64,000 nucleotides of DNA from Shigella phage SSP1. Of this stretch, positions 15,869 through 34,742 are shown in pieces. Both the position numbers and the translations under genes were made by a program. The stretch is from sequence record KY963424. One strand, written 5' to 3'. Each line of letters begins with the position of its first letter. The first letter of the stretch is position 1. The notes below the pieces were generated by a model that was not told the origin of the DNA, searched no databases, and saw only the letters and a program-made list of their open reading frames with translations.

Positions 15869-15887
15869 GTGTTTCAAGGAATATAAT

Positions 15888-16085: not shown

Positions 16086-16086
16086 T

Positions 16087-16816: not shown

Positions 16817-17037
16817 CAATTATTTTAGTAGTTATGTTATTCATCGTAGTACTTGTATCTTTTGCTATTATGCGTAGAGCTAGAGAACTAGCAGAAGATC
16901 TAGTAAAATTACGTGGTGAGTTGGCTGCTCTTAAACTACAACGAGAGGCCTTAAAAGTATTTGTAGCTCAAGGTAGCGCAGCGCATACAGCAGAAGACTT
17001 CATCGTATCTCTCAAACGTTACATGGGAATCAAATAA
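16792..17037 (+). CDS. hypothetical membrane protein
   Basis: N-terminal TM segment IIAIILVVMLFIVVLVSFAIM. Confidence 0.45.
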   Translation: MDVNMEIIAIILVVMLFIVVLVSFAIMRRARELAEDLVKLRGELAALKLQREALKVFVAQGSAAHTAEDFIVSLKRYMGIK

Positions 17038-17222
17038 TGGAAACATTACTTCTTGTATTACTAGGAGGCTCACTCCTAATAATCCTGGGGCTGATACTGA
17101 TTTGCAGTCGCCTCAATACTAAGAATCTAGAGTTAACCTGTGAGAATGAAATTCTCAATAATGAACTCTTTCAATATAACATCGCAGCTCATAAACTGTT
17201 AGACAAACTGGAGGATATATAA
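17037..17222 (+). CDS. hypothetical small membrane protein
   Basis: N-terminal TM segment LLLVLLGGSLLIILGLILI. Confidence 0.45.
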   Translation: METLLLVLLGGSLLIILGLILICSRLNTKNLELTCENEILNNELFQYNIAAHKLLDKLEDI

Positions 17223-17836
17223 TGTTTACACAACAACCTATTCAAGTAGTACCGGATCATGAACTGAACACATGGGATTATAGCTTTAAAGATTTAACTG
17301 CTACTGTACAATTTAAATCTATGAAGCTAACATTTGCACATACGGATCTTAAAGCCTGTAAAGATCTTGAAGGTAAGCTCGAAGATGCTCGTAAGATTTT
17401 TGGCAAGGCTCGCATCCCAGCTGATAATCTAATTAACGCATTAATCGATGCAGGGTACAAACTTGTGAAGACTGAGGTGAACCGCCCTAGTACTCCAGTG
17501 ACTATTAGAGATCCGTGGCCGTCAGGGACAATCTCAATGCTGAATAACTCCGATAAAAGATTAATGTCGGATATGCACAATGTTCCTTGTGGGGGTGTGG
17601 TAAGTAGTACGCAGTCATATAAGTTTGGGGAAGATTACGGCCCTTCTGTACAGCTGAAACATACTCAAGAAGCTTTTGAATCTGATATGCGAAGCGTAGC
17701 ACCTGCGGATGCTGGAGTTTCTAGGAGTTCTGTTTATGCTATTCATTTTAATAATCCTAGTAAACATGGAAGTTTAGAGGATGCTATTATGGAGGCGTTG
17801 GGAGCCGCTATTAATGAAGATAAGAGAGGTAATTAA
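17222..17836 (+). CDS. hypothetical protein
   Basis: 204-aa ORF coupled to neighbours. Confidence 0.5.
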   Translation: MFTQQPIQVVPDHELNTWDYSFKDLTATVQFKSMKLTFAHTDLKACKDLEGKLEDARKIFGKARIPADNLINALIDAGYKLVKTEVNRPSTPVTIRDPWPSGTISMLNNSDKRLMSDMHNVPCGGVVSSTQSYKFGEDYGPSVQLKHTQEAFESDMRSVAPADAGVSRSSVYAIHFNNPSKHGSLEDAIMEALGAAINEDKRGN

Positions 17837-18177
17837 TGATATTTGGTAAAACAAAAATAGCCCCTGCTGGGGAAAATTTAATTACTCTTAGCCTTTACTA
17901 TAAAGACGAGGATTCTGAGGTAGAGACATTAGAATACGTGGTGGTAGTAAACAGTAAGGCTAAAGAGACAGAATTATTTAATACATTAATAGAGATATCA
18001 AACTGTGAATCTCTACCCCCATTGACCCCTAGAAATGTTGCCCATATGGTTAACCAGCTAGGAATGCTGTGGTATAAATTAGAACCTAGTAAAAGTAATA
18101 CTACAGGAACTTTTAAACCACGAAGAGAGAAAAAGACACAAGTTAGTGATACTAGTCAGCAGGCATGGGATATATGA
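17836..18177 (+). CDS. hypothetical protein
   Basis: ORF in coupled array. Confidence 0.45.
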   Translation: MIFGKTKIAPAGENLITLSLYYKDEDSEVETLEYVVVVNSKAKETELFNTLIEISNCESLPPLTPRNVAHMVNQLGMLWYKLEPSKSNTTGTFKPRREKKTQVSDTSQQAWDI

Positions 18178-18920
18178 TTGAAGAAGCTAATAAATTTAAG
18201 AATATACTCGCTTTAGCAGTAACAGCAGATCACAAATGTCTATCAGAGCTAGAGCCAGATGTCAAACATGCAGTAATGTTTGTTTGTGAGATGTTCCCTG
18301 CTAAATGGGAGGGCAAGAAGATTAAGTTTGATATTAATGCTCCTCAAGCAGATCTAGCGTATTCATACGTGGATATGAACAAAGTATTGAAGTCTTTAGA
18401 TCCAACTGCTAAAGGGCATAGAGCTAACTTTTTACATGTTATTATAGATGAACCTTTGCCAACATATCCAGAAGCAAACGTTCGTCAGGCACTAGAGGCC
18501 TATCCTGAACAACTTCTTATTCCGCCTAAGAAATGTAAGTATGACCATCTTCCCCCTCTAAAATATATGGAGAGTGTTTCTTTCGAGGATATTAATAAAA
18601 CAATTGGAGCTATGATAGCACGGATTGCAGTATCTCATACCCGTAAGATTCCATTAACGGATATTGAAGATAACATTCTTTATGCTATTCATGATGAAGA
18701 GAATACCTTTAGACGTCTTGCGGATGTTCTAGGATTAGGATCATTAACTGCGGCTGTGCTTAACTATGCTCCTAAAACAAATAAATACCCTAGAGGTACG
18801 TTAACCTATGAGGAATCTGGATCAGAATCTTCGTTTCTAGCAACATATATTTACCTAGCATCTAAAGGGGTATATCTCAAAGCCAAGAAGAATCCAAAAA
18901 CGTTAGCAAAATCTTCTTGA
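18165..18920 (+). CDS. hypothetical protein
   Basis: 251-aa ORF; last + strand early gene before the repeat region. Confidence 0.5.
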   Translation: MGYMIEEANKFKNILALAVTADHKCLSELEPDVKHAVMFVCEMFPAKWEGKKIKFDINAPQADLAYSYVDMNKVLKSLDPTAKGHRANFLHVIIDEPLPTYPEANVRQALEAYPEQLLIPPKKCKYDHLPPLKYMESVSFEDINKTIGAMIARIAVSHTRKIPLTDIEDNILYAIHDEENTFRRLADVLGLGSLTAAVLNYAPKTNKYPRGTLTYEESGSESSFLATYIYLASKGVYLKAKKNPKTLAKSS

Positions 18921-19261
18921 CGTTATTAAAAATGTATGTTATAATAATCTCATAGATTAACAATAACTCTTATTGTGAACTCTAGGGGCGATGATTATTA
19001 CAACTCTATTTGCGTCTGTGCTATAGCGGCTAGTCTTAGCGCGGGCCAATATTAGAGTTCTTCCGTAATACTCACGCGCCCCACGAGGAATCTCACATGA
19101 AATGGGGGATCATTTACTTTTAAAACATACGAATATATTTAAAGGCAATATTTGTATTCAAGATGATACACTTGTTGCCGCTCTCCATCTCTAGGATCAC
19201 ATACACTTTCCTAGAAACTCCAGAGTTCTCACGAGATATCACACTTCTAGTGGGCGGTTCT

Positions 19262-19333
19262 CCTAAGTTTCTAGGAACATATACTAGGCGGTTAATACAG
19301 GGCGGTTATGGGGAGGGCGGTTATTTCTAGACA
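19262..19333 (+). repeat. four direct copies of GGCGGTT(A/C)
   Basis: GGCGGTT at 19263, 19297, 19311, 19326. Confidence 0.7.
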
Positions 19334-19366
19334 ACATTTTTTGAAAACACATTTTCAGAAATTATT

Positions 19367-19972
19367 GTCGGATTTGCACACTGACATAAGTTTAAAAACT
19401 GGTCGGATTTGCACAATTGCCTAAGTTTTTAGGAACATATAATCTCCTGAAAATGCCAGCATTATTTCGGGCCGAAGGCCCATGGTTGCCTGAGTTTTTA
19501 GAGCCACAGAAATTTTCACTTGTCAAGCTATTTTGCCCCATTTAGCAAATAAAATTTTACTTTATCTCCACTAATCTCAAATTAACCCAAATCTTCTCAA
19601 CTCTTCCCCAAAATCCCCACAAATCAGGTGCTCCGCACCAAACATGCGCCCCTCTAGCTTCCCCCCCCCCCCTAATTTTCTCTCGCTCTCTCAACTTCTC
19701 CCCAAACCCACACAATCACACACCCTCTCATCGAAGTCACAAAAATATTCCTGAAACCATAAATCTGTCTCCTAGTAAACTCGTGTCGGATTTGCACATA
19801 CCCCACAGGATTCGAACGCAGTTCGAGATTGCTGGAGTTTTTGGGAAAATTCATTGTCGGATTTGCACACTATAAAAATTTTTCGGGTCGGATTTGCACA
19901 CTACCAAAAATTGTCGGATTCGCACATACACGCCCGCACGTAACACCCGTGGAGCAATGTCGGTTTTGCACA
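19367..19972 (+). repeat. dispersed array of seven copies of 14-mer GTCGGATTTGCACA
   Basis: Exact copies at 19367, 19402, 19785, 19856, 19887; one-mismatch copies at 19913 and 19959; same orientation. Confidence 0.85.
19661..19672 (+). repeat. C12 homopolymer within a G-depleted C/A/T-rich tract
   Basis: Twelve consecutive C; surrounding 19560-19780 has about 6 percent G on + strand. Confidence 0.85.
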
Positions 19973-20002
19973 AAAGCGCAGGGCAATTGCCCTGCGCTAA
20001 AT

Positions 20003-20160
20003 ACGAATGATAATAAGAATCATTCTCATTTAAAAAGCGGAATGAGAATGATAATAATTCGCATTTAGAAAGTGAAATGAGAATCAATCTCATTTAAAAA
20101 GTGGAATGATTCTCATTTAGATAGTGGAATGCAAATGATAATGATTCGCATTTAAGAACG
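20003..20160 (+). repeat. tandem array of degenerate AT-rich palindromic repeats (AATGAGAAT...ATTCTCATT / TGATAAT cores)
   Basis: About five tandem units each ending CATTTA(R)AAAG; extra copy at 20491-20512; resembles Fur-box-like GATAAT arrays. Confidence 0.6.
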
Positions 20161-20161
20161 G

Positions 20162-20295
20162 AAGTGAGAAACACTGTTATTTAAGTTATCCACAGACTTA
20201 TCAACAGCACGATTTGACTTGACAAAACCCTAGCCATTTTGAAGCGTTATTAACAGACTTATCCACAGCTTATCCTACTGTATAAATATACAGTA
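20162..20295 (+). repeat. left arm of about 135-bp imperfect inverted repeat carrying DnaA boxes
   Basis: Reverse complement of 23553-23686 aligns with few mismatches; TTATCCACA at 20186-20194 and 20259-20267, TTATCAACA at 20198-20206. Confidence 0.8.
20276..20295. promoter_or_regulatory. LexA (SOS) box-like palindrome TACTGTATAAATATACAGTA
   Basis: 19 of 20 matches to E. coli LexA consensus TACTGTATATATATACAGTA. Confidence 0.55.
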
Positions 20296-20550
20296 TTCCT
20301 ACGCAGTGAATAATTCTAATATAGCGTTAAAACGCTCTCAAACGCATTCTAACGCGTTTAATTTTGGTGGGGATACTAAATCAAGGGCAAAATTGAAGGA
20401 GGCTTGAAAATTAGTTAGCGCGCTAACGATCACACAAGGCGACACGTAACACCCGAATCATTAGCAGGCTAACCATCGCGGGCGCGGTCAAATGAGAATG
20501 ATTATCATTTGAAAATTGGGGCACTTCCAGATAGTTGCGCCCCGTGATTA

Positions 20551-20745
20551 TTAGTCTGGTAGTCGATGCGTGATCTTTTCCTCCTCCCCATATGAGTCCA
20601 CCAAATACTTATAATAACCATCGTGATCATAAATCACTTTATCATATTCGCCACGCTCAACCGCTTGTCGGTTTTCCGGCGTATCGGGCACGTAAAAAAC
20701 ATCAACCATTGTACTAGTTTTGGTTACAACAATTTTATTGCTCAT
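20551..20745 (-). CDS. hypothetical protein (cassette gene 8)
   Basis: 64-aa ORF, GC-richer composition, last gene of minus-strand cassette. Confidence 0.45.
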   Translation of the reverse strand: MSNKIVVTKTSTMVDVFYVPDTPENRQAVERGEYDKVIYDHDGYYKYLVDSYGEEEKITHRLPD

Positions 20746-20855
20746 AATAACTCCCTAGTAAATATATTTTTGCCAATAGTGGCGAACGTTATCGCCCCCA
20801 GCGGAATCATTAGCGGCCTTACTATTACCAACGAAAGTATATAATCTCATTAGTA

Positions 20856-21017
20856 TTATTTTCCTTGCATTAATTTATATATAACGAACATTCCGCAAAA
20901 CTGCCCTAATATAGTGCAGACAACAAGGGATAACACAATATTGCCGATTGTGTTATAAATAACCATACCAACAATAAGGGATAACGCATATCCTAGCAAA
21001 GCAATATAAACAGCCAT
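20856..21017 (-). CDS. small two-TM membrane protein (cassette)
   Basis: ATG one nt after upstream stop; hydrophobic MAVYIALLGYALSLIVGMVIY and LSLVVCTILGQFCGMFVIY. Confidence 0.45.
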   Translation of the reverse strand: MAVYIALLGYALSLIVGMVIYNTIGNIVLSLVVCTILGQFCGMFVIYKLMQGK

Positions 21018-21018
21018 A

Positions 21019-21363
21019 TTATTTACCCATTTTTCGAAACGCTGTTTCAATACTATCAGCCGTGGATTGAATATATGCTCCTTTCATTATCAGGCGCTCG
21101 GTGCACACCTTACGGAAAATATTAATAAAATCATCCTCATTTTCTGCAATTAATGCTTCACCCATAACCTGAACGTCGCAAGCTGCAAAGGTTAAAAATT
21201 GAAACGCTAGTTCACGGGCAACGACCGCATTGATTTTATAATGCGCCTTACCCTCATAAATATTAATAACGCCCTTATATGCTGGCGAAAGCTGGTTTAA
21301 ATAGCTTGCTAATAATGCCGGGCGGCAGTTAGCAACAAAACGATTTCCCTCATAAATAACCAT
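21019..21363 (-). CDS. hypothetical protein (cassette)
   Basis: 114-aa ORF with GGGAGG RBS supplied by upstream small ORF. Confidence 0.55.
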   Translation of the reverse strand: MVIYEGNRFVANCRPALLASYLNQLSPAYKGVINIYEGKAHYKINAVVARELAFQFLTFAACDVQVMGEALIAENEDDFINIFRKVCTERLIMKGAYIQSTADSIETAFRKMGK

Positions 21364-21364
21364 T

Positions 21365-21490
21365 TTATAACCTCCCGATCAGATAGCCCGATAATAACAT
21401 AAAGATCCCCAGCGAAAGAGGATCATTCTTAAATAAGGTGGCGATAAAACCGCCAGCCATTGCAAGGGCAATAACAATAACGCTTTTCAT
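21365..21490 (-). CDS. small hydrophobic peptide (41 aa, cassette)
   Basis: ATGA overlap with upstream stop; sequence MKSVIVIALAMAGGFIATLF...; below track cutoff. Confidence 0.4.
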   Translation of the reverse strand: MKSVIVIALAMAGGFIATLFKNDPLSLGIFMLLSGYLIGRL

Positions 21491-21699
21491 AGTACCCCAC
21501 GAAACGCAGCGTAAAAGGTGGCAAAGTGCCTAACCGTTTCAAGGATCACGTTGCCGCGCTTGTCGAATTTCTTTTCAGTAACACGAAAAGCGTTTTTGTT
21601 ACGTGCTACATATTCGATTTTACAATCTGGACGCTCGAATGTGTTAGCATCCACCAGCTTAAAACCTTTCGAACGTGCAAGAGAAACGTTACGAATCAT
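21487..21699 (-). CDS. hypothetical protein (cassette)
   Basis: 70-aa ORF translationally coupled to neighbours. Confidence 0.5.
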   Translation of the reverse strand: MIRNVSLARSKGFKLVDANTFERPDCKIEYVARNKNAFRVTEKKFDKRGNVILETVRHFATFYAAFRGVL

Positions 21700-21701
21700 T
21701 T

Positions 21702-21881
21702 TTATTCTCCTTTACTATTCATGCAGCCCAGCAGATAAGAAAATGCAGCGATACCCGCGCCAATAATAACCATTGGTTTTGTGACTACTAAACCGCAATA
21801 ATCTTGAATGCCGTAAGCGGTGGCGAAAAGGGTCAAAATAGCGCCCAAGATACCCGCCAGAATAGCTCGAAAAATAACCAT
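21702..21881 (-). CDS. small two-TM membrane peptide (59 aa, cassette)
   Basis: GGGGAG RBS; MVIFRAILAGILGAILTLFATAYG...MVIIGAGIAAFSYLLG; below track cutoff. Confidence 0.45.
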   Translation of the reverse strand: MVIFRAILAGILGAILTLFATAYGIQDYCGLVVTKPMVIIGAGIAAFSYLLGCMNSKGE

Positions 21882-21931
21882 TTTTTAATACTCCCCTAGT
21901 TAGTGGGGCGAAAGTAACGCCCCGTTATTAA

Positions 21932-22162
21932 TTACATTAAGATAATTTTTGCAGCTTGTTTTTTGGTGCAATGTTCCGCCTTCAGGGTATCCAGCAAAAA
22001 GCCCGCTGTTTGTTGATCGATTTGATCATTATCATAAAGCGTCTGGATGGTGTTATAAGTTTTAGCAATGCCGTATTCTTGGACCATTTCTTGAATAATC
22101 CAGCGATTTGATACCCAGCCTTTACCAGTGAAAAGAGCGTCAGAAGAAGAAAAAGCAACCAT
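21932..22162 (-). CDS. hypothetical protein (cassette)
   Basis: 76-aa ORF on cassette strand. Confidence 0.5.
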   Translation of the reverse strand: MVAFSSSDALFTGKGWVSNRWIIQEMVQEYGIAKTYNTIQTLYDNDQIDQQTAGFLLDTLKAEHCTKKQAAKIILM

Positions 22163-22277
22163 TTTAAGCCTCCAAATTTTTGGGAAAATTTTCGACCGTC
22201 CTCAAACGGTGTAAAGGCATTATAACAAAAAAGGCCACCATAAAAGGCGACCTTTACAAAACTTTACAATAGGCTAG

Positions 22278-23267
22278 TTATTGCTCGTTTTCGGTGTTAT
22301 TGGTAAAAGTAGAAATATCGATACCTTTTACCATTTCATCGATCATCTCAGCGATGTTAAAACTTTGGACCATTTCCAACATTGCCGCTTCCATAGCCGC
22401 CCCCGCTACCGCTTTCGCTTTCTGGTTACTCGGGGCGTACTGGTCAACCGCTACACTCAGCAGGTTAGCGATCACTACACGACCAACCGGCGTATCAATA
22501 TAGCCTTTGATCATGAACGGTGCTTTTTTAGCCGCTACTTTCGTGATTTGAGTTAGTGCAATTTTACCCGCTTCCAGTTTTGCAGCGTTTACAACGGCAG
22601 ACTTATTGGCGGCAACGATGTTAGCAATCTTGGTCATAGTGTTTTTTCCTTTATTTTCAGTAGTTTGAGTGTGAACGCTTTTAGTGTTAGAATTTACAGC
22701 ATGTTTTTCTATATTGCCAATACTTTCTTCCCTTTCGAAAGAAAATCCGGCGTCAACAATATCGCCGTCATATACCCGATTATATAACTCCGACGGTAGC
22801 AAAAAATTACCGTTATCATCAAAGGCCATTATAGCCGCAAAACGATACCCATCAGAATCCGACCGATTCCAGCCAACTGATAAATAACGCCAAAATGAAT
22901 CAAGAAAATTTTCTACGTCATAAAGATCATTATCATTGGCCTCATAGTTTTCTATTGAAAAAACTTCTAAGCCCGCCCCAGTATCATAGGCTTTTACTGT
23001 GTTGCCTTTTACGATTATGAAATCAGTATCCGGCCCCCGACTAGTGAGTAATTGATAATCCTGATTATACAAAACAAGCGTTGCCCCTTGCTTATATAAC
23101 GGTAGAAAACTATTCATATTATAAGCATCATAAGCATCAAAAAAGTTTTGATGAATAGTTTCAATATTGAAAACAAAATGTTTAATGCTGGTGGTCCTGC
23201 TACCATCCAGCAGGTTACGCAGCGCACCTTTTAAGACGGTTGCGTTATCTGGTTTATATAGCCTCAT
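22278..23267 (-). CDS. hypothetical 329-aa protein (first and largest cassette gene)
   Basis: Long ORF with RBS GAGGAGG; N-terminal Asp/Tyr-rich domain and Ala/Lys-rich helical C-terminal half; no motif I recognise. Confidence 0.6.
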   Translation of the reverse strand: MRLYKPDNATVLKGALRNLLDGSRTTSIKHFVFNIETIHQNFFDAYDAYNMNSFLPLYKQGATLVLYNQDYQLLTSRGPDTDFIIVKGNTVKAYDTGAGLEVFSIENYEANDNDLYDVENFLDSFWRYLSVGWNRSDSDGYRFAAIMAFDDNGNFLLPSELYNRVYDGDIVDAGFSFEREESIGNIEKHAVNSNTKSVHTQTTENKGKNTMTKIANIVAANKSAVVNAAKLEAGKIALTQITKVAAKKAPFMIKGYIDTPVGRVVIANLLSVAVDQYAPSNQKAKAVAGAAMEAAMLEMVQSFNIAEMIDEMVKGIDISTFTNNTENEQ

Positions 23268-23552
23268 TTGTTGGCCTCCTCGTTAATCGGTGAGTGAATG
23301 ATAAGGGTAATTTTCTAGTATAGGCAAAGATTATTTTACTTTTTTATTTTCCTTGCCTAGTGCCTAATTTTATGCTAACCGCGCAGCGGTGTAATAAAGA
23401 GCAAAACACGGCGAAGCCACCAGGGCGCCGCATTGCCGCCACCTGGCCAACGTGTTGGGCCTTTACTTTAATATTACCCCGCAGCGTTTAGCTCGTTAGA
23501 AAGCGTTTTAGGCGGCCTAAAATTGATTGCAGTCGTTAACACTGCCTTTCTA

Positions 23553-23572
23553 CCCTGTATATTTATACAGTA
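23553..23572. promoter_or_regulatory. LexA box-like palindrome (CTGTATATTTATACAG core)
   Basis: CTGT-N8-ACAG with AT spacer, 17 of 20 to LexA consensus; inverted copy of the site at 20276-20295. Confidence 0.5.
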
Positions 23573-23686
23573 GGATAACCTGTGGATAACTCTGTGTAAA
23601 AGTCCCCATATCGCCGCCTATTGTGTCAAATTATTTTGTGCTGTGGATAACGTTGTGGATAACTTAAATGATAGTGGTTCTCACTT
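23553..23686 (+). repeat. right arm of inverted repeat carrying DnaA boxes
   Basis: TGTGGATAA at 23581-23589, 23642-23650, 23654-23662; reverse complement matches 20162-20295. Confidence 0.8.
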
Positions 23687-23696
23687 ATGCCGATAG

Positions 23697-23765
23697 TTTC
23701 TTATAGTTATTATTATAATGGTGATGATTACATATAGCTATTATTATAGTGGTGATGATTTCATA
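23697..23765 (+). repeat. AT-rich direct repeats (two copies of about 31 bp)
   Basis: AGTTATTATTATAATGGTGATGATTACATAT and AGCTATTATTATAGTGGTGATGATTTCATAT in tandem inside a 350-bp AT-rich non-coding stretch. Confidence 0.75.
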
Positions 23766-24045
23766 TAGTTATTATTTCTCATTAATTTATAAGTATATTA
23801 TATATCATGAAATAGTTAGTTGGCTAATGAGATTTTCCGTGATTAATAGTCTGCTAATAGTTCAGGCCGTTACAATCCACCAGCATGATTATCATCCTAG
23901 CAATTATTAGTCTGCTATCTTTCCGATGCATACTAACAAATAAAAGTCAATTAATTAATTTTATAAAATAAGTCATTTGATCTTGATTTTTAAAAGTCAA
24001 GACCTTTTCCAACTATTTTTCAATTTTGCGTTTGTTAATGATTTG

Positions 24046-24285
24046 TTAAGTCGAAAATAGGCGGCCTAAAACGCCCCAGAACGCAATAAAGTTTTTAGCC
24101 ATCCCATCATAAGGGGATATGCCGTTTATCGCTGCCACGAGGTTTTTGGATTTTGTCAAGTAGGGCAGGGCAAATATAAATGAAAAAATTACTTGCCTAT
24201 TTGCTTTGTTTTGTGGTATTCGCGCGCCCGTTTCTTTTAATTTTGGGCCGTCGCCGGACGTGGTGCGGAAAACTGTATTAGCCAT
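24046..24285 (-). CDS. hypothetical protein (doubtful)
   Basis: 79-aa minus-strand ORF without clear RBS or promoter. Confidence 0.25.
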   Translation of the reverse strand: MANTVFRTTSGDGPKLKETGARIPQNKANRQVIFSFIFALPYLTKSKNLVAAINGISPYDGMAKNFIAFWGVLGRLFST

Positions 24286-24286
24286 A

Positions 24287-24314
24287 TTGCTAATAATTTT
24301 GATATAATATAATA
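24287..24314 (+). promoter_or_regulatory. sigma70 promoter (TTGCTA-N16-TATAAT)
   Basis: -35 24287-24292, -10 24309-24314, upstream of HNH gene with AGGAG RBS. Confidence 0.5.
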
Positions 24315-24342
24315 ACCAAATGAAACTAATAGGAGAATACTA

Positions 24343-24684
24343 ATGATTGAACTAACAAAAGATATTGATTTAGAAACCGTACTAGATAACCTTTACTATG
24401 ATGAAACTAGTCCTAGTTGCCTACGGTGGAAAGTATCCCGCCCCGGTTGCGCCCTTCATGGGGTAGCAGGTACTAAACGGAAGGATGGCTATTGGTCTGT
24501 TCAACTAAATAAAGAGCGTTATCTTGCGCATCGTATTGTGTGGTTACTATTTAATTATAAAATAGATAGCAAACTAGTAATTGATCATATTGATCGTAAT
24601 CCTAGTAACAATTTTATTGATAACTTACGGTTAGTAACTCAAGCCGAAAACAACCAAAATAAAGGAGAGTATAGAAAGGCGTAA
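24343..24684 (+). CDS. HNH homing endonuclease
   Basis: LAHRIVWLLF...IDHIDRNPSNNFIDNLRLVTQAENN HNH_3 motif; AT-rich relative to neighbours. Confidence 0.75.
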   Translation: MIELTKDIDLETVLDNLYYDETSPSCLRWKVSRPGCALHGVAGTKRKDGYWSVQLNKERYLAHRIVWLLFNYKIDSKLVIDHIDRNPSNNFIDNLRLVTQAENNQNKGEYRKA

Positions 24685-24804
24685 AATTTACATTTCTTTA
24701 CAAATATAAGGTTGCGCCTTTTTCGTTATTTGTTATTATTTATCTCGTAGGGCGGCAATGACGAACTACACGGCGGGAAGTTTACCGCCGCGCTCTTTAA
24801 AAAT

Positions 24805-24828
24805 TGGGTATATCTTAAAGCCTATCGG
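24805..24828 (+). repeat. left copy of 24-bp inverted repeat TGGGTATATCTTAAAGCCTA(T/C)CGG
   Basis: Reverse complement of 25075-25098 with one mismatch. Confidence 0.8.
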
Positions 24829-24862
24829 CGGTAAACTTATTACATTATAAGGAATCGACGAT

Positions 24863-25066
24863 ATGAAACAAACTTTATTGATCACTGGTAAACCTAGCAA
24901 GGCACTGGATAGCAAAACAAAAAATTTATTGACAGTAGCGCAAAGATCGGTAAAATATCGATTTGAGCAGTACAAGAAAGGCCGCCAGCAAGGTTTAGAA
25001 ATGATCTGGCGAAATATTATGATCGACCTGAAGGAAAATCATAAAAAACTGCAAAAAATAGTTTGA
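24863..25066 (+). CDS. hypothetical basic 67-aa protein flanked by inverted repeats
   Basis: ORF with AAGGAA RBS lying between the two 24-bp repeat copies. Confidence 0.45.
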   Translation: MKQTLLITGKPSKALDSKTKNLLTVAQRSVKYRFEQYKKGRQQGLEMIWRNIMIDLKENHKKLQKIV

Positions 25067-25074
25067 CAACATAG

Positions 25075-25098
25075 CCGGTAGGCTTTAAGATATACCCA
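25075..25098 (-). repeat. right copy of 24-bp inverted repeat
   Basis: CCGGTAGGCTTTAAGATATACCCA is reverse complement of left copy. Confidence 0.8.
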
Positions 25099-25296
25099 GT
25101 TCGATAAGAGCGATAACTTGATACAATTTGACGGTCGGTACTTACCATAATGTGCCCCGCCCCCTAACTGGGATATAGCGGCCCGCGTGGAGTTCCTTAA
25201 ATTGATTTTATAATGGCGAGCGGATTTTTTCTTATTACCTGTTATTTTCCAGCAGGTAATGCGGAACAATCCCCTAAATAACTTGGAGTTTATACC

Positions 25297-25548
25297 ATGA
25301 AAAACGTTATTACCGCGCCTAAAATTGGTCAATCTGTTTTCATCCCTTTCGTTACTAAAACGGATGAATTAACCGGAAAAGCCGAACGTATTAAAGGCGC
25401 GGCGCTCATGCCGTTCGATACAATCGATGCGGTATACGCTGAAACAGAACGCAGTAACAACGGCAAGCCGATTTATAACGTTCGCGTTAAATCTGGCGAC
25501 GTTGTAAAGGTTGTTCAACGCAACGAAAAATGGGAAGCCGTTTTATAA
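25297..25548 (+). CDS. hypothetical pre-early protein
   Basis: ORF preceded by conserved leader CCCCTAAATAACTTGGAGTTTATACC. Confidence 0.55.
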   Translation: MKNVITAPKIGQSVFIPFVTKTDELTGKAERIKGAALMPFDTIDAVYAETERSNNGKPIYNVRVKSGDVVKVVQRNEKWEAVL

Positions 25549-25562
25549 TTTAGTGTTAACTT

Positions 25563-25590
25563 TATATGCCCCAGTAGTTCGGGGCATATA
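25563..25590 (+). other. GC-cored hairpin without U-tract (pre-early intergenic punctuation)
   Basis: 10-bp stem TATATGCCCC/GGGGCATATA with 8-nt loop. Confidence 0.6.
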
Positions 25591-25646
25591 ACGATTAACA
25601 TTATGTTAATCTTATCCCTTAAATTAAATTAATTGGAGTTTATATC

Positions 25647-26054
25647 ATGACTAACGTTAAAGCCGCAAAATTCACCTGGAACGAAGAAAACACCCAAAAA
25701 GCTGTTACCATGTATCAGCAGTTAATCAATGAAAACGGATTAGAATTCGCAAACAGCGACGGCCTGAAAGAGATTGCGAAAGCAGTGGGCGCGACTTCTC
25801 CCGTGTCAGTTCGTTCGAAATTGACCAGCGCGAAAGCCTATCAAAAAAGCGATAAGCCTCGCAAGGTTGGCGGCGGTAGCTCAATCCGCAAGGCTCATTA
25901 TGTGCGAGTAATTGCAAGACACGCCATCGATTCCGGCATTATCAAAGACGCCGATGATCTGGCAAGCCTTGAAAGCGCGAAGCTGGAAACGCTGGACGCC
26001 GTGGCGCAGTTGTTAGGCGTTGCCGATGAGGTGAAACAAGCCGCAGGCGAATAA
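25647..26054 (+). CDS. hypothetical pre-early protein
   Basis: ORF preceded by leader CCTTAAATTAAATTAATTGGAGTTTATATC. Confidence 0.55.
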   Translation: MTNVKAAKFTWNEENTQKAVTMYQQLINENGLEFANSDGLKEIAKAVGATSPVSVRSKLTSAKAYQKSDKPRKVGGGSSIRKAHYVRVIARHAIDSGIIKDADDLASLESAKLETLDAVAQLLGVADEVKQAAGE

Positions 26055-26319: not shown

Positions 26320-26345
26320 ATAACGCCTATTATTGGAGGCGTTAT
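26320..26345 (+). other. intergenic hairpin
   Basis: Stem ATAACGCCT/AGGCGTTAT. Confidence 0.55.
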
Positions 26346-26347
26346 AT

Positions 26348-26364
26348 TTGGCAATATTTGCCAA
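26348..26364. promoter_or_regulatory. 17-bp palindrome TTGGCAA-TAT-TTGCCAA (operator-like)
   Basis: Perfect 7-bp half-sites, located about 40 bp upstream of A1 start. Confidence 0.4.
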
Positions 26365-26404
26365 TAACAAACGTTTTTTAATCCCTTTAATGGAGTTTAT
26401 TATT

Positions 26405-28075
26405 ATGATTATTTCCGCAGAAAAACAAACCGTTATCCTGAAGCTGGCCGCTGACTTTAATTTCTATGGTAAACGTCTGCGCGCCACTAAATTGGAAGTA
26501 TGTGACGATATTTCGAAAGCGGTATACGATACACCGAAACACTCTACCGCGATTTGTGATTGGCTGGAAGCAAATAAACCAGCGAAACCGAAAACGGCAA
26601 AAGTAGCAAAAGCTATTAAAAACGACGAGCGCCCCGAGGCGGCTGGAATTATTTCTAGCACGGTGGAACAGTGGGAAGTAAAGCAGGGCAAACGCTTTAT
26701 TATTACATCGATTCAGAATAATACTTTCCCGCATAAAAACTTTTTGGCCTCACTGGAACAATACGCTAAATTTATCGGCGCTGATTTACTTGTTTCTAAG
26801 TATATTTATAACAAAAACGGCTTTCAAAATGGTGAAGGCGCGGACGGTGTAAAATATGATTCCGCGTTTGATAAGTATATTTGCAGCAAAAACGTGTTTT
26901 TAAATAACCGCCGTTTTGCTTTCATGGCTGAAATTAATGTTCTGCCCACTGCAGACTATCCGCTGTCTGGATTCGCAGAAACTGCAACGGCTCTCAATCT
27001 TGAAGGTCTGGCAATTGGTCACGCTAAAATCACCGCCGAAAGCGTGCCAGCTCTCAAAGGTGAAGTAGTACGCCGCATGTACTCAACCGGAACGGCAACA
27101 CTCAAAAACTACATTCAGCAGAAAGCAGGACAGAAAGCGGAAGCACTGCATAATTTCGGTGCGCTGATTGTTGAGTTCGACGAAGACGGTGAGTTTTTTG
27201 TGCGCCAGCTTGAAACGATGGACGAAAGCGGCATGTTTTACGATTTGAATATTTGCGCGACCCCCGCCGGATGTTATGAAACATCGGGGCATGTTTTAGG
27301 TTTACAATATGGCGACATACACGCCGAAAAACTTGATGAGGAGTGCGCCGCAGCGTCATGGGGTCATGGTGATACTTATGGGCTAGTGGATATTCTTAAA
27401 CCTAAATATCAGTTTGTGCATGACGTTCACGATTTTACATCACGCAACCATCACAACCGCGCTTCAGGTGTATTTCTAGCGAAACAGTATGCAGCCGGAC
27501 GTGACAAGGTTCTGGATGATCTCATCGACACCGGGCGCGTGCTGGAATCAATGGAACGTGATTTTAGTCAAACGATCATTGTCGAATCTAATCACGATCT
27601 GGCGCTATCCCGTTGGCTTGATGATCGCAATGCTAACATTAAAGACGATCCAGCCAACGCGGAACTGTATCACCGCCTTAATGCTGCGATTTACGCGGCA
27701 ATCGGTAATCATGACGATACTTTCAACGTGCTGGATTATGCGCTGCGTACGGTTGCAGGTTGCGAGTTTAACGCGATTTTCCTGACAACTGACCAATCGT
27801 TTAAAATCGCAGGCATTGAATGCGGCGTACACGGTCACAACGGCATTAACGGGAGCCGTGGCAATCCGAAGCAATTCAAGAAATTGGGCAAGTTAAACAC
27901 GGGGCACACCCACACCGCCAGCATTTACGGCGGCGTTTATACCGCTGGCGTCGCTGGTTCCCTCGATATGGGCTATAACGTTGGCGCGTCAAGCTGGACG
28001 CAAACGCATTTAATTACCTATGCAAACGGCCAGCGCACTTTGATTGACTTTAAAAACGGCAAATTTTTCGCATAA
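26405..28075 (+). CDS. A1: A1 pre-early protein (metallophosphatase-fold, host DNA degradation/takeover)
   Basis: 556 aa from ATG 26405 as recalled for T5 A1; phosphoesterase motifs GDIHAE and GHGD; conserved pre-early leader. Confidence 0.75.
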   Translation: MIISAEKQTVILKLAADFNFYGKRLRATKLEVCDDISKAVYDTPKHSTAICDWLEANKPAKPKTAKVAKAIKNDERPEAAGIISSTVEQWEVKQGKRFIITSIQNNTFPHKNFLASLEQYAKFIGADLLVSKYIYNKNGFQNGEGADGVKYDSAFDKYICSKNVFLNNRRFAFMAEINVLPTADYPLSGFAETATALNLEGLAIGHAKITAESVPALKGEVVRRMYSTGTATLKNYIQQKAGQKAEALHNFGALIVEFDEDGEFFVRQLETMDESGMFYDLNICATPAGCYETSGHVLGLQYGDIHAEKLDEECAAASWGHGDTYGLVDILKPKYQFVHDVHDFTSRNHHNRASGVFLAKQYAAGRDKVLDDLIDTGRVLESMERDFSQTIIVESNHDLALSRWLDDRNANIKDDPANAELYHRLNAAIYAAIGNHDDTFNVLDYALRTVAGCEFNAIFLTTDQSFKIAGIECGVHGHNGINGSRGNPKQFKKLGKLNTGHTHTASIYGGVYTAGVAGSLDMGYNVGASSWTQTHLITYANGQRTLIDFKNGKFFA

Positions 28076-28082
28076 TTAAATT

Positions 28083-28110
28083 TATAAGCGGGGTATATAC
28101 CCCGCTTATA
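28083..28110 (+). other. GC-cored hairpin without U-tract
   Basis: Stem TATAAGCGGGG/CCCCGCTTATA around TATATA loop. Confidence 0.6.
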
Positions 28111-28142
28111 TCCCTTATTAAATTAATTGGAGTTTTATAACT

Positions 28143-28535
28143 ATGAAAAAGCAAAATATCCCATTCGATCGCGCTCAATCTTCCATCGTTCTGGTTTATT
28201 CTAATGGTGAGCGGTATCACGTTGAGGCCGGTCACGTTGTTGATGATTTAATCGACTTTAATGACGCTTTACAGATTACTACTTTCGCCTATACGCAAGG
28301 CCGCGCAAGTAGTCACATCAAGGCCGCAGGCGTTTATGTTGATACGGTGAAGCAGGAAACGATTATCATCGACGCCGTAAAATCCGGTCTAGCCTTTGCA
28401 GTTGTCGCGCCTTGTCCAGCTTGCTTTGATGATCAGCTATCGAGCGCAAAGGTATATATCTGCGCGGGTGTTCGTTCTCATGTATCCGGCGAAGATATTA
28501 GTTTCATCGCTGATGCGTTGGCTTATGGTCTTTGA
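28143..28535 (+). CDS. A2: A2-like pre-early protein (assignment by position and size)
   Basis: 130-aa ORF between A1 and dmp with conserved leader TTAAATTAATTGGAGTTTTATAACT. Confidence 0.45.
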   Translation: MKKQNIPFDRAQSSIVLVYSNGERYHVEAGHVVDDLIDFNDALQITTFAYTQGRASSHIKAAGVYVDTVKQETIIIDAVKSGLAFAVVAPCPACFDDQLSSAKVYICAGVRSHVSGEDISFIADALAYGL

Positions 28536-28548
28536 TAGTTGATTTATT

Positions 28549-28575
28549 ATTGCCCGCTGATAAATAGCGGGCAAT
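28549..28575 (+). other. GC-cored hairpin without U-tract
   Basis: 10-bp stem ATTGCCCGCT/AGCGGGCAAT, loop GATAAAT. Confidence 0.6.
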
Positions 28576-28615
28576 GCTGGATAAACTAAATCCCTTTAAT
28601 GGAGAACGTAACAAA

Positions 28616-29350
28616 ATGAATCAAGTTAAAATGAATATTACCCGTAATTTCCCGCATATTTCCCGCGTCATGATTTGGGATCTGGACGGAACAATCATTA
28701 ATTCATTCCATCGTGTCGCGCCTTGCTTTGATAGCGAGGGTAATTTAGATTTAAATAAGTATAAGAATGAAGCGTGTAAGCATCATTTAATAATGCAAGA
28801 TACCTTATTGCCTTTGGTTGAATATATGCGCCAGTGCATGAATGACGCAAATACTTTAAACATTATTTGTACCGCTCGACTAATGAGCAAATCGGACTAT
28901 TATTATTTGCGCAAACAAGGCTTACGCGGTCGTGGGGATAGTAATATCCGCGTGTTTTCCCGCGATACGCTGCATAAATATTTTGAAGCTGATAAAGTTA
29001 GCGAAATATACCACAGTAAGGACGCAGTTTATAAATCGTATTATTTTGAGCTATTCAAACAACTATATCCGAACGCTGATTTTACAATGATTGATGATCA
29101 TAAAGGTGTATTATCAGCGGCAGCGTCATACGGATTTAAAACGCTGGACGCGCAAGCCGTTAATGATATTCTATCAATCGGCGTGGCATTGATAGGCGGA
29201 ACCTTTATTGATGAATCTCTCGATGATGATAATGATTATCAGTTCCTAGCGGACCGCTTAAAACTATGTTGGGAAAGCATGACCGAAGAAGAACGCGCAG
29301 AATATAGTTGCAGCCCGCAACAATATATTGAGAAATTAAAAGTTGCGTAA
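28616..29350 (+). CDS. dmp: 5-prime-deoxyribonucleotidase (HAD family)
   Basis: 244 aa from ATG 28616 as recalled for T5 Dmp; HAD motif I WDLDGTI. Confidence 0.75.
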   Translation: MNQVKMNITRNFPHISRVMIWDLDGTIINSFHRVAPCFDSEGNLDLNKYKNEACKHHLIMQDTLLPLVEYMRQCMNDANTLNIICTARLMSKSDYYYLRKQGLRGRGDSNIRVFSRDTLHKYFEADKVSEIYHSKDAVYKSYYFELFKQLYPNADFTMIDDHKGVLSAAASYGFKTLDAQAVNDILSIGVALIGGTFIDESLDDDNDYQFLADRLKLCWESMTEEERAEYSCSPQQYIEKLKVA

Positions 29351-29526: not shown

Positions 29527-30024
29527 TTAATTATGATTTGCAAACTCACCGTGATAGTGCTCCCTGGCTTTTCTAAGTTCTTTTTCAGCCTGCTCAAGAG
29601 TTTTAAAAGTTCCCACGGTAATCCTATTGCCATTTACACGTAATTTTGCTTCGAACTTTTCCTCACCACGTTTATATACTCCCTTAACTCCGGTAGACTC
29701 ATTCTTCCATCCCGAAGAGTTTTTGCCATTCTCTGCATTTGTTGCTTTACGCAGGTTATTCCATCTATTGTTGAAAGGATCTTGATCTTTATGATCAATG
29801 AGAAACTCACTCGGATCTTCTCCTGTCATGTATAGATATGCTACCCGATGGGCTTTATATAACCCATTACTGCCCATTGATAGGGATATTCCTGAGCTGT
29901 TTCTACTGCCTGCTGGCTTACCTTTACGACTTCCCGAGTTCCAAGTAAAGATACCAGTTCCAGGATCATAATCAAATTTCTTCTGGTATTCTGCTAAGGG
30001 CAGTAGAGGTTTATGATTTGCCAT
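29527..30024 (-). CDS. HNH homing endonuclease with AP2-like domain
   Basis: AHRVAYLYMTGEDPSEFLIDHKDQDPFNNRWNNLRKATNAEN; 165 aa, paralog of 5634-6131. Confidence 0.75.
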   Translation of the reverse strand: MANHKPLLPLAEYQKKFDYDPGTGIFTWNSGSRKGKPAGSRNSSGISLSMGSNGLYKAHRVAYLYMTGEDPSEFLIDHKDQDPFNNRWNNLRKATNAENGKNSSGWKNESTGVKGVYKRGEEKFEAKLRVNGNRITVGTFKTLEQAEKELRKAREHYHGEFANHN

Positions 30025-30229
30025 CTATCTTGGATCTCCTCCGAGAACTTCTTGAACCGTCATTCCACTCCCGCTCAAACTCCGCACGTTTCTCATCAAA
30101 CTTCCGCTCCCTTTCCGCAATCTCCCGCGATACTTCCGCAATATATTTACGATGCTTGTTGATTGCCGCAGTCGTCCCGAAAACTCCCGCGAGTATCCCG
30201 ATAATAAAAGCAATTACAATACTAAACAT
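30011..30229 (-). CDS. small single-pass membrane protein with charged C-terminus
   Basis: TM segment FSIVIAFIIGILAGVFGTTAAI then Arg/Glu-rich tail; coupled to upstream ORF. Confidence 0.5.
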   Translation of the reverse strand: MFSIVIAFIIGILAGVFGTTAAINKHRKYIAEVSREIAERERKFDEKRAEFEREWNDGSRSSRRRSKIDGKS

Positions 30230-30823: not shown

Positions 30824-31090
30824 TTACAGGTAGTTAGATTGCTCTAGTTTAAATTTACAATCACCATATTTAAGGTCAAACTGACTGAGATCCCACCACC
30901 CAAACTTAGTGCGGAGCTGTACTACTGGAAAGCGATCTCCCTTAATACGAACTTTTTGAACCTTGAGGCCGTAATGTTCTTCTCCAGCACCACCAAAAGA
31001 TTTTACAAATCCAGTACAAAATGGTTTGGGAGCAGGTGCACAACCAGATAACATAACTGTGGTAACTAGTGCAATCACAAACTTTTTCAT
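30824..31090 (-). CDS. llp: Llp-like lytic-conversion lipoprotein (receptor-blocking)
   Basis: Signal peptide with lipobox LSGC; divergent from and adjacent to the receptor-binding protein gene; own strong early promoter. Confidence 0.65.
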   Translation of the reverse strand: MKKFVIALVTTVMLSGCAPAPKPFCTGFVKSFGGAGEEHYGLKVQKVRIKGDRFPVVQLRTKFGWWDLSQFDLKYGDCKFKLEQSNYL

Positions 31091-31121
31091 ATTTATCTCT
31101 CCATTTCTAATTTATGAATCT

Positions 31122-31150
31122 ATTATAGCAAAATAGAGGGATGAAAGCAA
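31122..31150 (-). promoter_or_regulatory. T5 early-type promoter for llp (TTGCTT-N17-TATAAT)
   Basis: Minus-strand -35 at 31145-31150, -10 at 31122-31127, then AGATTCATAAATTAGAAATGGAGAG leader. Confidence 0.75.
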
Positions 31151-31175
31151 ATACATTTTTATAATAGGAGATTAT

Positions 31176-32933
31176 ATGGGTTTTTTCGCTGGAAAATATA
31201 GCGATGGTAAGACCGTACTATCTTTAAATACTGAATCTGGTGGTGACATTAATCGTCACTATAGTCCAAATGCTAATAGTATTTTTCATAGTGATATGCC
31301 ATTTGTCCTAGTTGATGGTACTTACGAGGCTGGGTTAGGAAATGCTGGAAATGGGTTTTTTGTATGCCAGATGCCTTCTGACATAATAAATATTAAATCC
31401 AACGACCCAGGTAGAGTTATACTAACTGCTATTGAGATTAATGGTACTCATAGGGCTTTTCTTAACGGTACTCAGAGTAAGGTGGGTCAAACTATAGTTG
31501 CCACTCAAGCAGATCCTTTTAGATCTTTTGCTAGTGTTTCCCAGACTAGTGGATTTGCATTTGGTAATAGCCTGGCATCTGGTACATATAACTATAATCC
31601 ATCTATAGGACATGAAGAATCTATTTCTAGGAATGGTACAGGGGGTACTACCTTACATAGTACGTATCATGGTATAGTTAGGCCAGGTGCAGGAGCTCCA
31701 GTAGGTATTACTGTTGCAGAAGCTTTTGCACAGTTAGGATTCCCTACTAATAGTAGTACAGTACCTATAGATGGTAATAACCAATATTACTGGGACCCAG
31801 GATGGATGTCTCCTTTAGGATCAGCACACAGAGGGCACGATTGGTTTTATGTTTGTAACTCTAACATACGTGGGTATGGTGGGGTAAGACAAGGTCTTCC
31901 TGGTAATGTAAATACTATGTATCATGATGGAGGTAACAGATTTGTTTGTAGGGGTTCTACAACTAATTTAGCTAACCAATCTGGTAACGCTACAATATTA
32001 CAGGATTGGTATAACATAACCCCTACTAAAGTTATTTGGTACGTTTTGAATTTAAGATACTCAAATGGTGGTATGAGTATCTCTGGTAATCCTTTTACTG
32101 GTTCAGATATTCTTATATCTCCTTCTAATTTCATAATTAAAGGGGTTAGTCTTCCCAATACTGGATACAAGTTTATTAACCAAAACGCTTTCGGTAACTT
32201 AGGTTATAGACCAGATATGGAATACATTGGAAATAACGCAGCATACACTGGGGCCTTTGGGGATACCACTGCAAGATGTGAACTTGTAGGTTCTAGTAAC
32301 GGGAGTTTATGGTCTCCTGTAGACTATGGAGGGGCTAAGTCTCAAATTAGTATTTACAAATTCGGAGCTGGTAAGCAATGGTACGTAAACTCTAATGATA
32401 ATACTATCGGTAATGAACACGGGGTTGTTTGGGGGCCTTCAGCAGTTCCACTACGACTTTTTAGCGGAAATGTTGGTAGTTCTTACATGGGGGATGATAT
32501 TACTCCCAGCTATCCAGGAACTGGAGATAGATACGTTGGTTTATCAACTATTGGGCTAGGTATACCGGGTGGCAATGCTACAGTAATTCTTACCACTGAA
32601 GTTATATCAGGTAATCTTAACTGTGCAGGTGTTCCTGCTAATACATGGAATAACGGTGTGTTTCAAGTGCAAGGAAGAAGAGCATATAGTTATAGTAATG
32701 GAGACGCGATATTCCACCAGATTTTAACACTACCAGTAGGGTATTTAGTACCTTTTCATACTACATCTGCTTTTAGATACACACCTAACAATGCCCTAAG
32801 TAGAAATAGTTTTATATACACTGCTAAAAATCTGGGGAACGGAAATGTAGAGTTAGGGGTAGTTATGCACGTAAGTTTAGGTAGTGCAGTTTTCCTACCT
32901 AGATTAAGAGTAACAGTTCAACGCCTTACCTAA
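31176..32933 (+). CDS. receptor-binding tail protein (pb5-like)
   Basis: 585 aa; N-terminus [17 protein letters not shown] resembles recalled pb5 family start; Gly/Asn-rich; position next to llp as in T5. Confidence 0.65.
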
Positions 32934-32943
32934 AGGAGGAAAT

Positions 32944-33426
32944 ATGGCAAATGATGTATTAGTACCAGATCTTATGTCCCCTGAAGGGATGGATGTAATT
33001 GAAGCTTATTTACAGTGCGGTAGTGATGTGCCCTCTGCCGCACGTAGTCTCGGAATGTCAGAAATTGCTTTCCGAGATATTATGAATCGTAGTGAAGTTA
33101 AGAACTACTTAAATGATATTTTTATGGAGAGTGGATTCCGTAACAGAGATCGTTTATTTGGTGTTCTGGATGAAGTTATCAAGCGTAAACTAGAGGAGCT
33201 AGAAGAAACCGGCATGGGTTCTGATCAGGATATTATGGATATTCTCTGGAAAGCACATAAAATGAAAATGGAAGAAATGAAAATGATGGTAGAATTGGAG
33301 AAAGTGAAGGCAGCAGCCCGTACTCCAGCTAATCAGACTAATATCCAGAATAACATTATTGCTGGAGCTGGAGATCAAAACTACATGGATTTAATTACTT
33401 CCCTAGCTACTGGAGGTAAGAAGTAA
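32944..33426 (+). CDS. terminase small subunit (putative)
   Basis: Directly upstream of and coupled to the large terminase; HTH-like [17 protein letters not shown]. Confidence 0.5.
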
Positions 33427-34742
33427 TGGAAGTATCAAGACCCTATGTTAATACAGTAGATGTTATTGATTTCGGAATAGATAAGCGTTTCTTTCGTCTA
33501 CCTGTTTCGGGAATACTAGCGCAAGAAGGTATTACACCTAATGGCCCTCAAATAGCAATTATCAATGCCCTAGAAGACCCTAGACATCGTTTTGTAACGG
33601 CGTGTGTATCACGCCGTGTGGGTAAGTCCTTTATAGCATATACACTTGGGTTCCTAAAACTGCTGGAACCTAATGTGAAAGTACTAGTAGTTGCTCCTAA
33701 CTACTCACTGGCCAATATCGGATGGTCTCAGATTCGTGGTCTTATTAAAAAGTACGGCCTACAAACCGAACGTGAGAACGCTAAAGATAAAGAGATTGAG
33801 CTGGCAAACGGCTCACTGTTTAAACTAGCTTCCGCGGCGCAGGCTGACTCAGCAGTTGGACGTTCATATGATTTTATCATCTTTGATGAGGCGGCAATTT
33901 CTGATGTTGGTGGTGATGCCTTTAGAGTTCAGCTACGTCCTACCCTAGATAAACCTAATTCTAAGGCTCTATTTATCTCTACCCCTCGTGGAGGTAACTG
34001 GTTTAAGGAGTTTTATGCCTATGGATTTGATGATACATTACCTAACTGGGTATCTATTCATGGTACATATCGTGATAACCCACGTGCTGATCTGAATGAT
34101 ATCGAAGAAGCACGTCGTACAGTTAGTAAAAACTACTTCCGTCAGGAATATGAGGCTGACTTCTCTGTATTCGAAGGTCAGATCTTTGATACCTTTAATG
34201 CTATCGATCATGTTAAAGACCTCAAAGGTATGCGTCACTTCTTTAAAGATGATGAAGCATTCGAAACGTTGCTCGGTATTGACGTTGGTTATCGTGATCC
34301 TACAGCAGTTCTTACTATCAAGTATCACTATGATACGGATACTTACTATGTATTAGAAGAGTACCAGCAAGCGGAGAAAACCACAGCTCAGCATGCTGCT
34401 TACATTCAGCACTGTATAGATCGTTATAAAGTTGATCGTGTTTTTGTTGACTCTGCCGCAGCTCAGTTCCGTCAGGACTTAGCGTATGAACATGAGATTG
34501 CCTCTGCTCCTGCTAAGAAATCTGTCCTAGATGGCCTAGCATGTTTACAAGCACTATTCCAACAGGGTAAGATTATTGTAGATGCTTCATGTTCCTCATT
34601 AATTCATGCACTGCAGAACTATAAGTGGGATTTCCAAGAAGGTGAAGAAAAATTATCACGTGAAAAACCACGTCATGATGCTAACTCTCACCTTTGTGAT
34701 GCTCTGCGCTATGGAATTTACTCTATTTCCCGTGGTAAATAA
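33426..34742 (+). CDS. terminase large subunit
   Basis: Walker A-like SRRVGKS, Walker B IIFDEA, C-terminal nuclease-like acidic motifs; 438 aa. Confidence 0.85.
   Translation: MEVSRPYVNTVDVIDFGIDKRFFRLPVSGILAQEGITPNGPQIAIINALEDPRHRFVTACVSRRVGKSFIAYTLGFLKLLEPNVKVLVVAPNYSLANIGWSQIRGLIKKYGLQTERENAKDKEIELANGSLFKLASAAQADSAVGRSYDFIIFDEAAISDVGGDAFRVQLRPTLDKPNSKALFISTPRGGNWFKEFYAYGFDDTLPNWVSIHGTYRDNPRADLNDIEEARRTVSKNYFRQEYEADFSVFEGQIFDTFNAIDHVKDLKGMRHFFKDDEAFETLLGIDVGYRDPTAVLTIKYHYDTDTYYVLEEYQQAEKTTAQHAAYIQHCIDRYKVDRVFVDSAAAQFRQDLAYEHEIASAPAKKSVLDGLACLQALFQQGKIIVDASCSSLIHALQNYKWDFQEGEEKLSREKPRHDANSHLCDALRYGIYSISRGK

Follow-up and report, generated by a model that had tools for sequence, protein, structure and literature searches.

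The gene under study (rbp; Table 1) lies in a 64,000-nucleotide stretch of Shigella phage SSP1 DNA (KY963424), referred to here as the window, and very probably encodes the monomeric tail-tip receptor-binding protein (RBP) of a T5-like phage (Tequintavirus), in an allele that has BtuB, the outer-membrane transporter of vitamin B12, as its terminal receptor in place of the FhuA used by T5. The BtuB assignment has three independent lines of evidence: the clustering of the RBP among its homologues, the identity of the lipoprotein Llp encoded beside it, and the genetics of phages with near-identical RBPs. The first-pass annotation had tentatively proposed, mainly from the length of the protein, that the receptor is not FhuA but BtuB, FepA, or another TonB-dependent transporter; the proposal holds, and the clustering, Llp, and genome-wide screens narrow it to BtuB. 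Length itself proved not to be diagnostic, with the BtuB-type RBPs compared here spanning 585 to 595 aa, and it is sequence clustering rather than size that places the protein in the BtuB group.

The reading frame is intact, running on the plus strand from an ATG at 31176 to a TAA at 32931-32933 and specifying 585 residues. An AGGAG ribosome-binding site (31166-31170, plus strand) sits 5 nt 5' of the ATG, and the TAA is followed by AGGAGG and then by the terS ATG at 32944. A reading of rbp as non-coding or as a pseudogene was rejected, given the intact frame, a length equal to that of AKFV33 ORF158 (585 aa; PMC3326045), protein conservation of 97-99%, and the presence of the gene in about 100 records. 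A nucleotide search found 99 phage records covering at least 80% of the gene, with phage IME178 at 98.1% identity, and of the 539 phage records that tblastn matched to the RBP, 100 are at least 95% identical to it, so the AKFV33/Bas31-type allele is common. It is a well-described, widespread, and ordinary allele that is already in the literature, and its significance outside annotation is small.

Table 1. Features of the rbp locus and related genes in the window; residue numbers (aa) refer to the RBP
Feature	Coordinates	Strand	Description
A1	26333..28075		DNA-transfer protein
dmp	28574..29350		
HNH ORF	29527..30024	-	Homing endonuclease, 165 aa; Pfam HNH_3, PHROG 99
T5p158-like ORF	30011..30229	-	Membrane protein, 72 aa (81 in T5)
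llp	30824..31090	-	88-aa receptor-blocking (superinfection-exclusion) lipoprotein, BF23 type; divergent from rbp
llp-rbp spacer	31091..31175		Divergent control region, 85 bp
rbp (oad/hrs homologue)	31176..32933	+	585-aa pb5-family receptor-binding tail-tip protein, very probably BtuB-type; AKFV33/Bas31 allele
RBP aa 1-38	31176..31289	+	Predicted apical N-terminal strand set; aligns with T5 pb5 1-37
Variable rbp interior (~aa 93-573)	31454..32893	+	Holds the distal receptor-binding half; from nucleotide identity bins
RBP aa 308-327	32097..32156	+	Putative pb4-binding segment; aligns with T5 333-352, which reads FNGNDIKLSPREFIIKGVNV
RBP aa 340-345			Putative pb4-binding segment; aligns with T5 365-371
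RBP aa 396-424	32361..32447	+	Putative pb4-binding segment; aligns with T5 427-455
terS (sciB homologue)	32944..33426	+	Directly 3' of rbp, a synteny marker for the locus; PHROG 3802 'terminase small subunit', E = 6.5e-91
terL	33426..34742	+	
pb4 homologue	51335..53407	+	Straight central fibre, RBP-carrying virion partner; PHROG 3890 'straight fibre tail protein'
Tail-fibre gene 1	53834..57184	+	Lateral tail fibre, 1116 aa
Tail-fibre gene 2	57228..59315	+	Lateral tail fibre, 695 aa

A Pfam search of the RBP matched no family, and the protein was therefore placed by means of the PHROGs and a sequence search of the PDB. PHROG 4815, 'receptor binding tail protein', matches RBP residues 1-585 over profile positions 1-650 of 650 (E = 8e-275), which gives the full-length pb5 homology expected of this family. 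Against a copy of the PDB, only T5 pb5 (chains 8b14_B and 8a8c_B) was found at E ≤ 1, with phmmer aligning RBP aa 1-142, matched to pb5 1-143, and aa 270-531 (E = 9e-50); the same search found neither a BtuB-type RBP structure nor one of BtuB with Llp. Overall identity to T5 pb5 is 32.4% in a MAFFT alignment and 29.6% at 100% coverage by tblastn. The high full-length identity to pb5 that would count against a change of receptor thus did not appear, at 32% overall.

Several features noted in the first-pass annotation can be seen in these alignments. The N-terminus is indeed pb5-like, with aa 1-45 at 53% identity to T5 pb5 when scored in 45-aa bins and with the phmmer alignment running from the first residue to residue 142. 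The protein is also shorter than T5 pb5, which has 640 aa in both its deposited record and the PDB chains; the 55-residue shortfall is due to a few indels, among them two insertions specific to T5, one of ~28 aa around pb5 residues 245-280 and one of ~12 aa around 562-573. The suggestion that the center and C-terminus do not obviously resemble pb5 stands for aa 91-270 (16-27% identity) and aa 451-495 (22%), but fails as a general statement, since homology runs the full length of the protein, and a C-terminal QRLT motif is common to all RBP family members aligned.

T5 pb5 is an elongated monomer in which four loops at one end enter the FhuA lumen, namely L1 (Gln115), L2 (Phe170), L3, and L4 (570-590) (PMC9586334). 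Its apical end is a small beta-helix that continues the pb4 trimer beyond its spike and is the portion conserved across the family; the pb4-binding subdomain there comprises residues 1-37, 333-352, 365-371, and 427-455 (bioRxiv 10.1101/2022.09.22.509047). The four corresponding segments of the RBP are together 50% identical to T5, compared to 29% for the remaining RBP, and the T5 loops L1, L2, and L4 map in the alignment to RBP aa ~114, ~170, and ~536, all inside the variable interior listed in Table 1 and in its most variable stretches. The pb4 homologue encoded in the window is 76% identical to T5 pb4 over 688 aa, rising to 81% in the last ~93 alignment columns. As judged by sequence, the phage thus has both the conserved apical subdomain and the pb4 partner that characterize the pb5 family. 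Since the apical segments are conserved, the loop regions divergent, and the pb4 proteins similar, the RBP appears to keep the virion adaptor while carrying a different receptor half.

Published work divides the RBPs of T5-like phages by receptor into three clusters, BtuB, FepA, and FhuA (BASEL, PMC8594841), and phages BF23, DT57C, EPS7, and phiR2-01 have been named as BtuB binders (PMC10644984). We extracted reference RBPs from deposited phage records, aligned them with MAFFT, and computed an identity matrix. Closest to the window RBP are those of DaisyDussoix (Bas31; 98.8% identity), IrisVonRoten (Bas32; 97.4%), and AKFV33 (ORF158; 97.3%), followed by DT57C (586 aa; 73.8%), SPC35 (595 aa; 73.6%), BF23 Hrs (595 aa; 68.5%), and phiR2-01 (55.9%), with T5 pb5 at 32.4% and the RBPs of H8 (637 aa) and Gostya9 (645 aa) both at 28.2%. 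The comparison with T5, BF23, DT57C, and H8 that the first-pass annotation had outlined therefore favors the two BtuB phages (68.5-73.8%) over T5 (32%) and H8 (28%). The RBP groups with the BtuB binders BF23, DT57C, SPC35, and phiR2-01 (56-74%), apart from the FhuA and FepA clusters, and H8 and Gostya9 pair with each other at 56% identity, separate from the window RBP. The EPS7 RBP was left out of the matrix because frameshifts break its deposited sequence; tblastn gives 69% identity in three pieces. The EPS7 record (CP000917.1, 1453..3231) has no annotated RBP coding sequence at this broken frame; the entry is an old one, and faulty sequencing probably explains the frameshifts.

Genetic evidence comes from phages with closely related RBPs. 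BtuB is listed as the terminal receptor of Bas31 and Bas32 in BASEL Table S5 (PMC8594841), and in genome-wide screens btuB is the listed hit for both phages, with fitness values of about 14-15 (bioRxiv 10.64898/2026.04.02.716166). The same study assigns T5_ev212, whose RBP gene is 96% identical in nucleotide sequence to rbp, to BtuB, and reports that the RBPs of 23 BtuB-binding Demerecviridae are ~30% identical to pb5, a value with which the ~30% identity of the window RBP agrees. The predicted dependence of the window phage on btuB is supported by homologues that differ from its RBP at 7 to 16 of 585 residues.

The BF23-type Llp gene expected of the BtuB subgroup is found beside rbp. Its product contains the lipobox LSGC, matches PHROG 1119, 'Cor superinfection exclusion protein' (E = 2e-25), and scores 19.9 bits against Pfam LPAM_1, slightly below the 20-bit cut-off; homologues in deposited phage records are annotated as 'receptor blocking protein'. 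Identity to Llp is 86/88 for BF23 and 87/88 for DT57C, and in the mature part, after the lipobox cysteine, it is 72/72 for both and 71/72 for SPC35. The T5 Llp is a different protein of 77 aa, described as non-homologous to the BF23 type (PMC10644984). Llp hardly varies (85-88 of 88 residues) among phages with up to 32% difference between their RBPs, and from these comparisons the constraint on the periplasmic BtuB blocker appears far tighter than that on the extracellular RBP.

The spacer between llp and rbp is 97-100% identical in nucleotide sequence to those of SPC35, AKFV33, DT57C, and BF23. On its minus strand, upstream of llp, are TTGCTT (31150..31145), a 17-nt spacer, and TATAATA (31127..31121), which, read by eye, fit the T5 promoter consensus TTGCTT(N17-18)TATAATA that the AKFV33 annotation gives for this position, and this T5-type promoter probably drives llp. 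A generic scan of 30400-33500 for sigma-70 promoters and terminators gave fewer promoter-like sites than shuffled controls did, and it flagged no site between llp and rbp.

To follow the conservation of the locus, nucleotide identity to SPC35, AKFV33, DT57C, and BF23 was measured in 90-nt bins. Identity to all four is mostly 92-100% across llp, the intergenic region, and terS. Within rbp, identity to SPC35 is 93-100% up to 31453, that is, over the first ~280 nt; between 31454 and 32893 identity to SPC35 and BF23 falls to 49-89%, mostly 50-70%, with SPC35 at 53-89%, and from 32894, for the last ~40 nt of the gene, it is back at 98-99%. At the protein level, the N-terminal ~90 aa are 100% identical between SPC35 and the window RBP, and aa 316-405 are 98% identical, whereas over aa 91-270 and 451-540 BF23 and SPC35 reach no more than 42-64% (DT57C 58-80%); BF23 and SPC35 also carry an insertion of ~10 aa near the C-terminus relative to the window RBP. 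SPC35 is among the closest backbones, with 96.6% nucleotide identity over 91% of a 25-kb stretch around rbp. Because the interior diverges between near-identical flanks, the receptor-binding part is an AKFV33/Bas31-type cassette exchanged into an SPC35-like backbone, and the rbp interior behaves as a swappable unit among BtuB-type phages. Its sharp boundaries illustrate clearly how T5-like phages trade receptor specificity in modules, as published earlier (PMC10644984; bioRxiv 10.1101/2022.09.22.509047).

The divergence of this cassette between near-identical flanks, at 42-64% identity to BF23 and SPC35 over aa 91-270 and 451-540, could mean that the protein binds BtuB and yet that its AKFV33-type distal half adds a second or alternative receptor, or has a footprint markedly different from that of BF23 and SPC35. 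We consider this improbable: the table of screen results lists BtuB and then 'None' for Bas31, Bas32, and T5_ev212 (the column header is not displayed, and we read the entry as no further receptor), and the cognate Llp is unchanged, which fits one shared receptor. The footprint on BtuB need not match that of BF23 and SPC35, since the distal half is only ~50-60% identical, and we give a low though appreciable probability to the narrower proposal that this distal half, which spans aa ~93-270 and ~450-575 and was swapped into an SPC35-like backbone, contacts other BtuB loops. If so, the phage might show a different tolerance to BtuB alleles across E. coli, Salmonella, and relatives, host resistance mutations might open different escape routes, and the BtuB cluster would comprise several functionally distinct docking solutions for one receptor.

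Binding of the enterobactin transporter FepA, as by H8, was among the options in the first-pass annotation, and the first 45 residues of the RBP are 80% identical to H8; this similarity lies, by T5 homology, in the segment that attaches to pb4 and not in one that contacts the receptor, and overall identity is 28% to H8 and Gostya9, themselves paired at 56%, in a family where BASEL finds the BtuB, FepA, and FhuA clusters to be separate (PMC8594841). We thus rejected membership of the H8-type subgroup, at 28% identity to the H8 RBP, and hold FepA to be a most unlikely receptor. A T5-type pb5 that binds FhuA, with a trivial difference in length, would share its family and locus with T5 oad but is hardly credible at 32% overall identity, with 16-27% over aa 91-270 where T5 loops L1 and L2 reside, with an adjoining Llp of the BF23 type and not the 77-aa T5 type, with near-identical RBPs from phages that have btuB as the screen hit, and with FhuA use confined to T5 and CEV2 among the screened Demerecviridae (bioRxiv 10.64898/2026.04.02.716166). 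The FhuA-binding subgroup was accordingly rejected on low identity and the BF23-type Llp, and the RBP has gaps opposite both ends of L4 (T5 residues 570 and 590). Identity and Llp type together rule out, for practical purposes, assignment to either the FhuA or the FepA type, and we retain BtuB as the receptor.

The RBP presumably works as T5 pb5 does, as a monomer on the pb4 tip with loops inserted into a TonB-dependent transporter. By homology, the ~38 N-terminal residues together with aa 308-327, 340-345, and 396-424 would make up a small apical subdomain continuing the trimeric pb4 spike. Receptor binding would then rigidify the protein, and its transmission through pb4 would lead to tail-tube opening and the onset of DNA ejection. 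Llp, by analogy with the T5 Llp and FhuA, would be made early, anchored on the periplasmic side, and lock BtuB in a form that the RBP cannot bind, a block that would prevent superinfection and the loss of progeny on cell debris. The docking of the RBP on BtuB and an allosteric action of Llp are both extrapolated from T5 and FhuA, because the PDB search at E ≤ 1 yielded T5 pb5 alone; since the BF23-type and T5 Llp proteins are described as non-homologous, the allosteric mechanism of Llp may differ from that in T5.

The surroundings of rbp are a typical T5-like (Tequintavirus) late region. The order of the divergent llp and of rbp, terS, and terL matches that in T5, BF23, DT57C, SPC35, and AKFV33, as expected of a pb5-family locus. 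Several small membrane-protein ORFs lie on the minus strand between dmp and llp, and terL is followed on its 3' side by portal, capsid, and tail genes and then by pb4 and two tail-fibre genes. An HNH homing endonuclease ORF sits between dmp and the T5p158-like membrane-protein ORF, overlapping the 3' end of the latter by 14 nt. No gene occupies this position in T5, BF23, Bas32, or SPC35, and the 890-bp HNH stretch is covered to at least 80% in only 34 of 237 matching phage records, e.g., Shivani and SelmaRatti.

Two genes (PHROGs 5481 and 12321) specify the lateral tail fibres, where T5 has a single 1396-aa pb1. Both are 98-99% identical in nucleotide sequence to those of the Salmonella phages vB_Sen-E22, NR01, and S124, and for this reason the host is probably Salmonella. 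S124 is cited as a probable FepA binder (BASEL, PMC8594841), and the match to its fibres suggests that fibre and RBP modules reassort independently. A further ~26 kb of sequence (1..26000) precedes the A1 and dmp genes (26333..29350), which in T5 and BF23 lie inside a ~10-kb terminal repeat adjoining llp and rbp; in the assembly behind the source record, then, the terminal repeat was probably collapsed or the genome permuted.

For annotation, we suggest the labels 'receptor-binding tail protein, BtuB-specific (BF23 Hrs / AKFV33 type)' for rbp and 'BtuB-blocking lipoprotein Llp' for llp. For phage cocktails, btuB loss-of-function mutants are predicted to be resistant to the window phage, with cross-resistance to other BtuB phages and E colicins but not to FhuA- or FepA-dependent phages.

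Among known systems, T5 pb5 (oad; PDB 8b14 and 8a8c), the FhuA-binding prototype, is a homologue over its whole length and is likewise encoded 5' of terS. Both proteins keep the segments for pb4 attachment and the C-terminal QRLT, whereas the window RBP is 55 aa shorter and 32% identical, very probably uses BtuB and not FhuA, and is accompanied by the other type of Llp. The RBPs of H8, which binds FepA, and of Gostya9 have family and locus in common with the window RBP and resemble it at the N-terminus, where H8 is 80% identical over aa 1-45, but they form a separate cluster at 28% identity overall. The classical BtuB-binding T5-like phages BF23, SPC35, and DT57C have the family, locus, and receptor class in common with the window, with RBPs 68-74% identical overall. 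Nearest in the RBP are the Escherichia phages Bas31, Bas32, vB_EcoS_AKFV33, and IME178 and Salmonella phage SP01, at 97-99% protein identity and with 7 to 16 substitutions; the RBPs of this group translated here are 585 aa long. These phages have the same locus and Llp as the window, on a genomic backbone that is further from it than that of SPC35.
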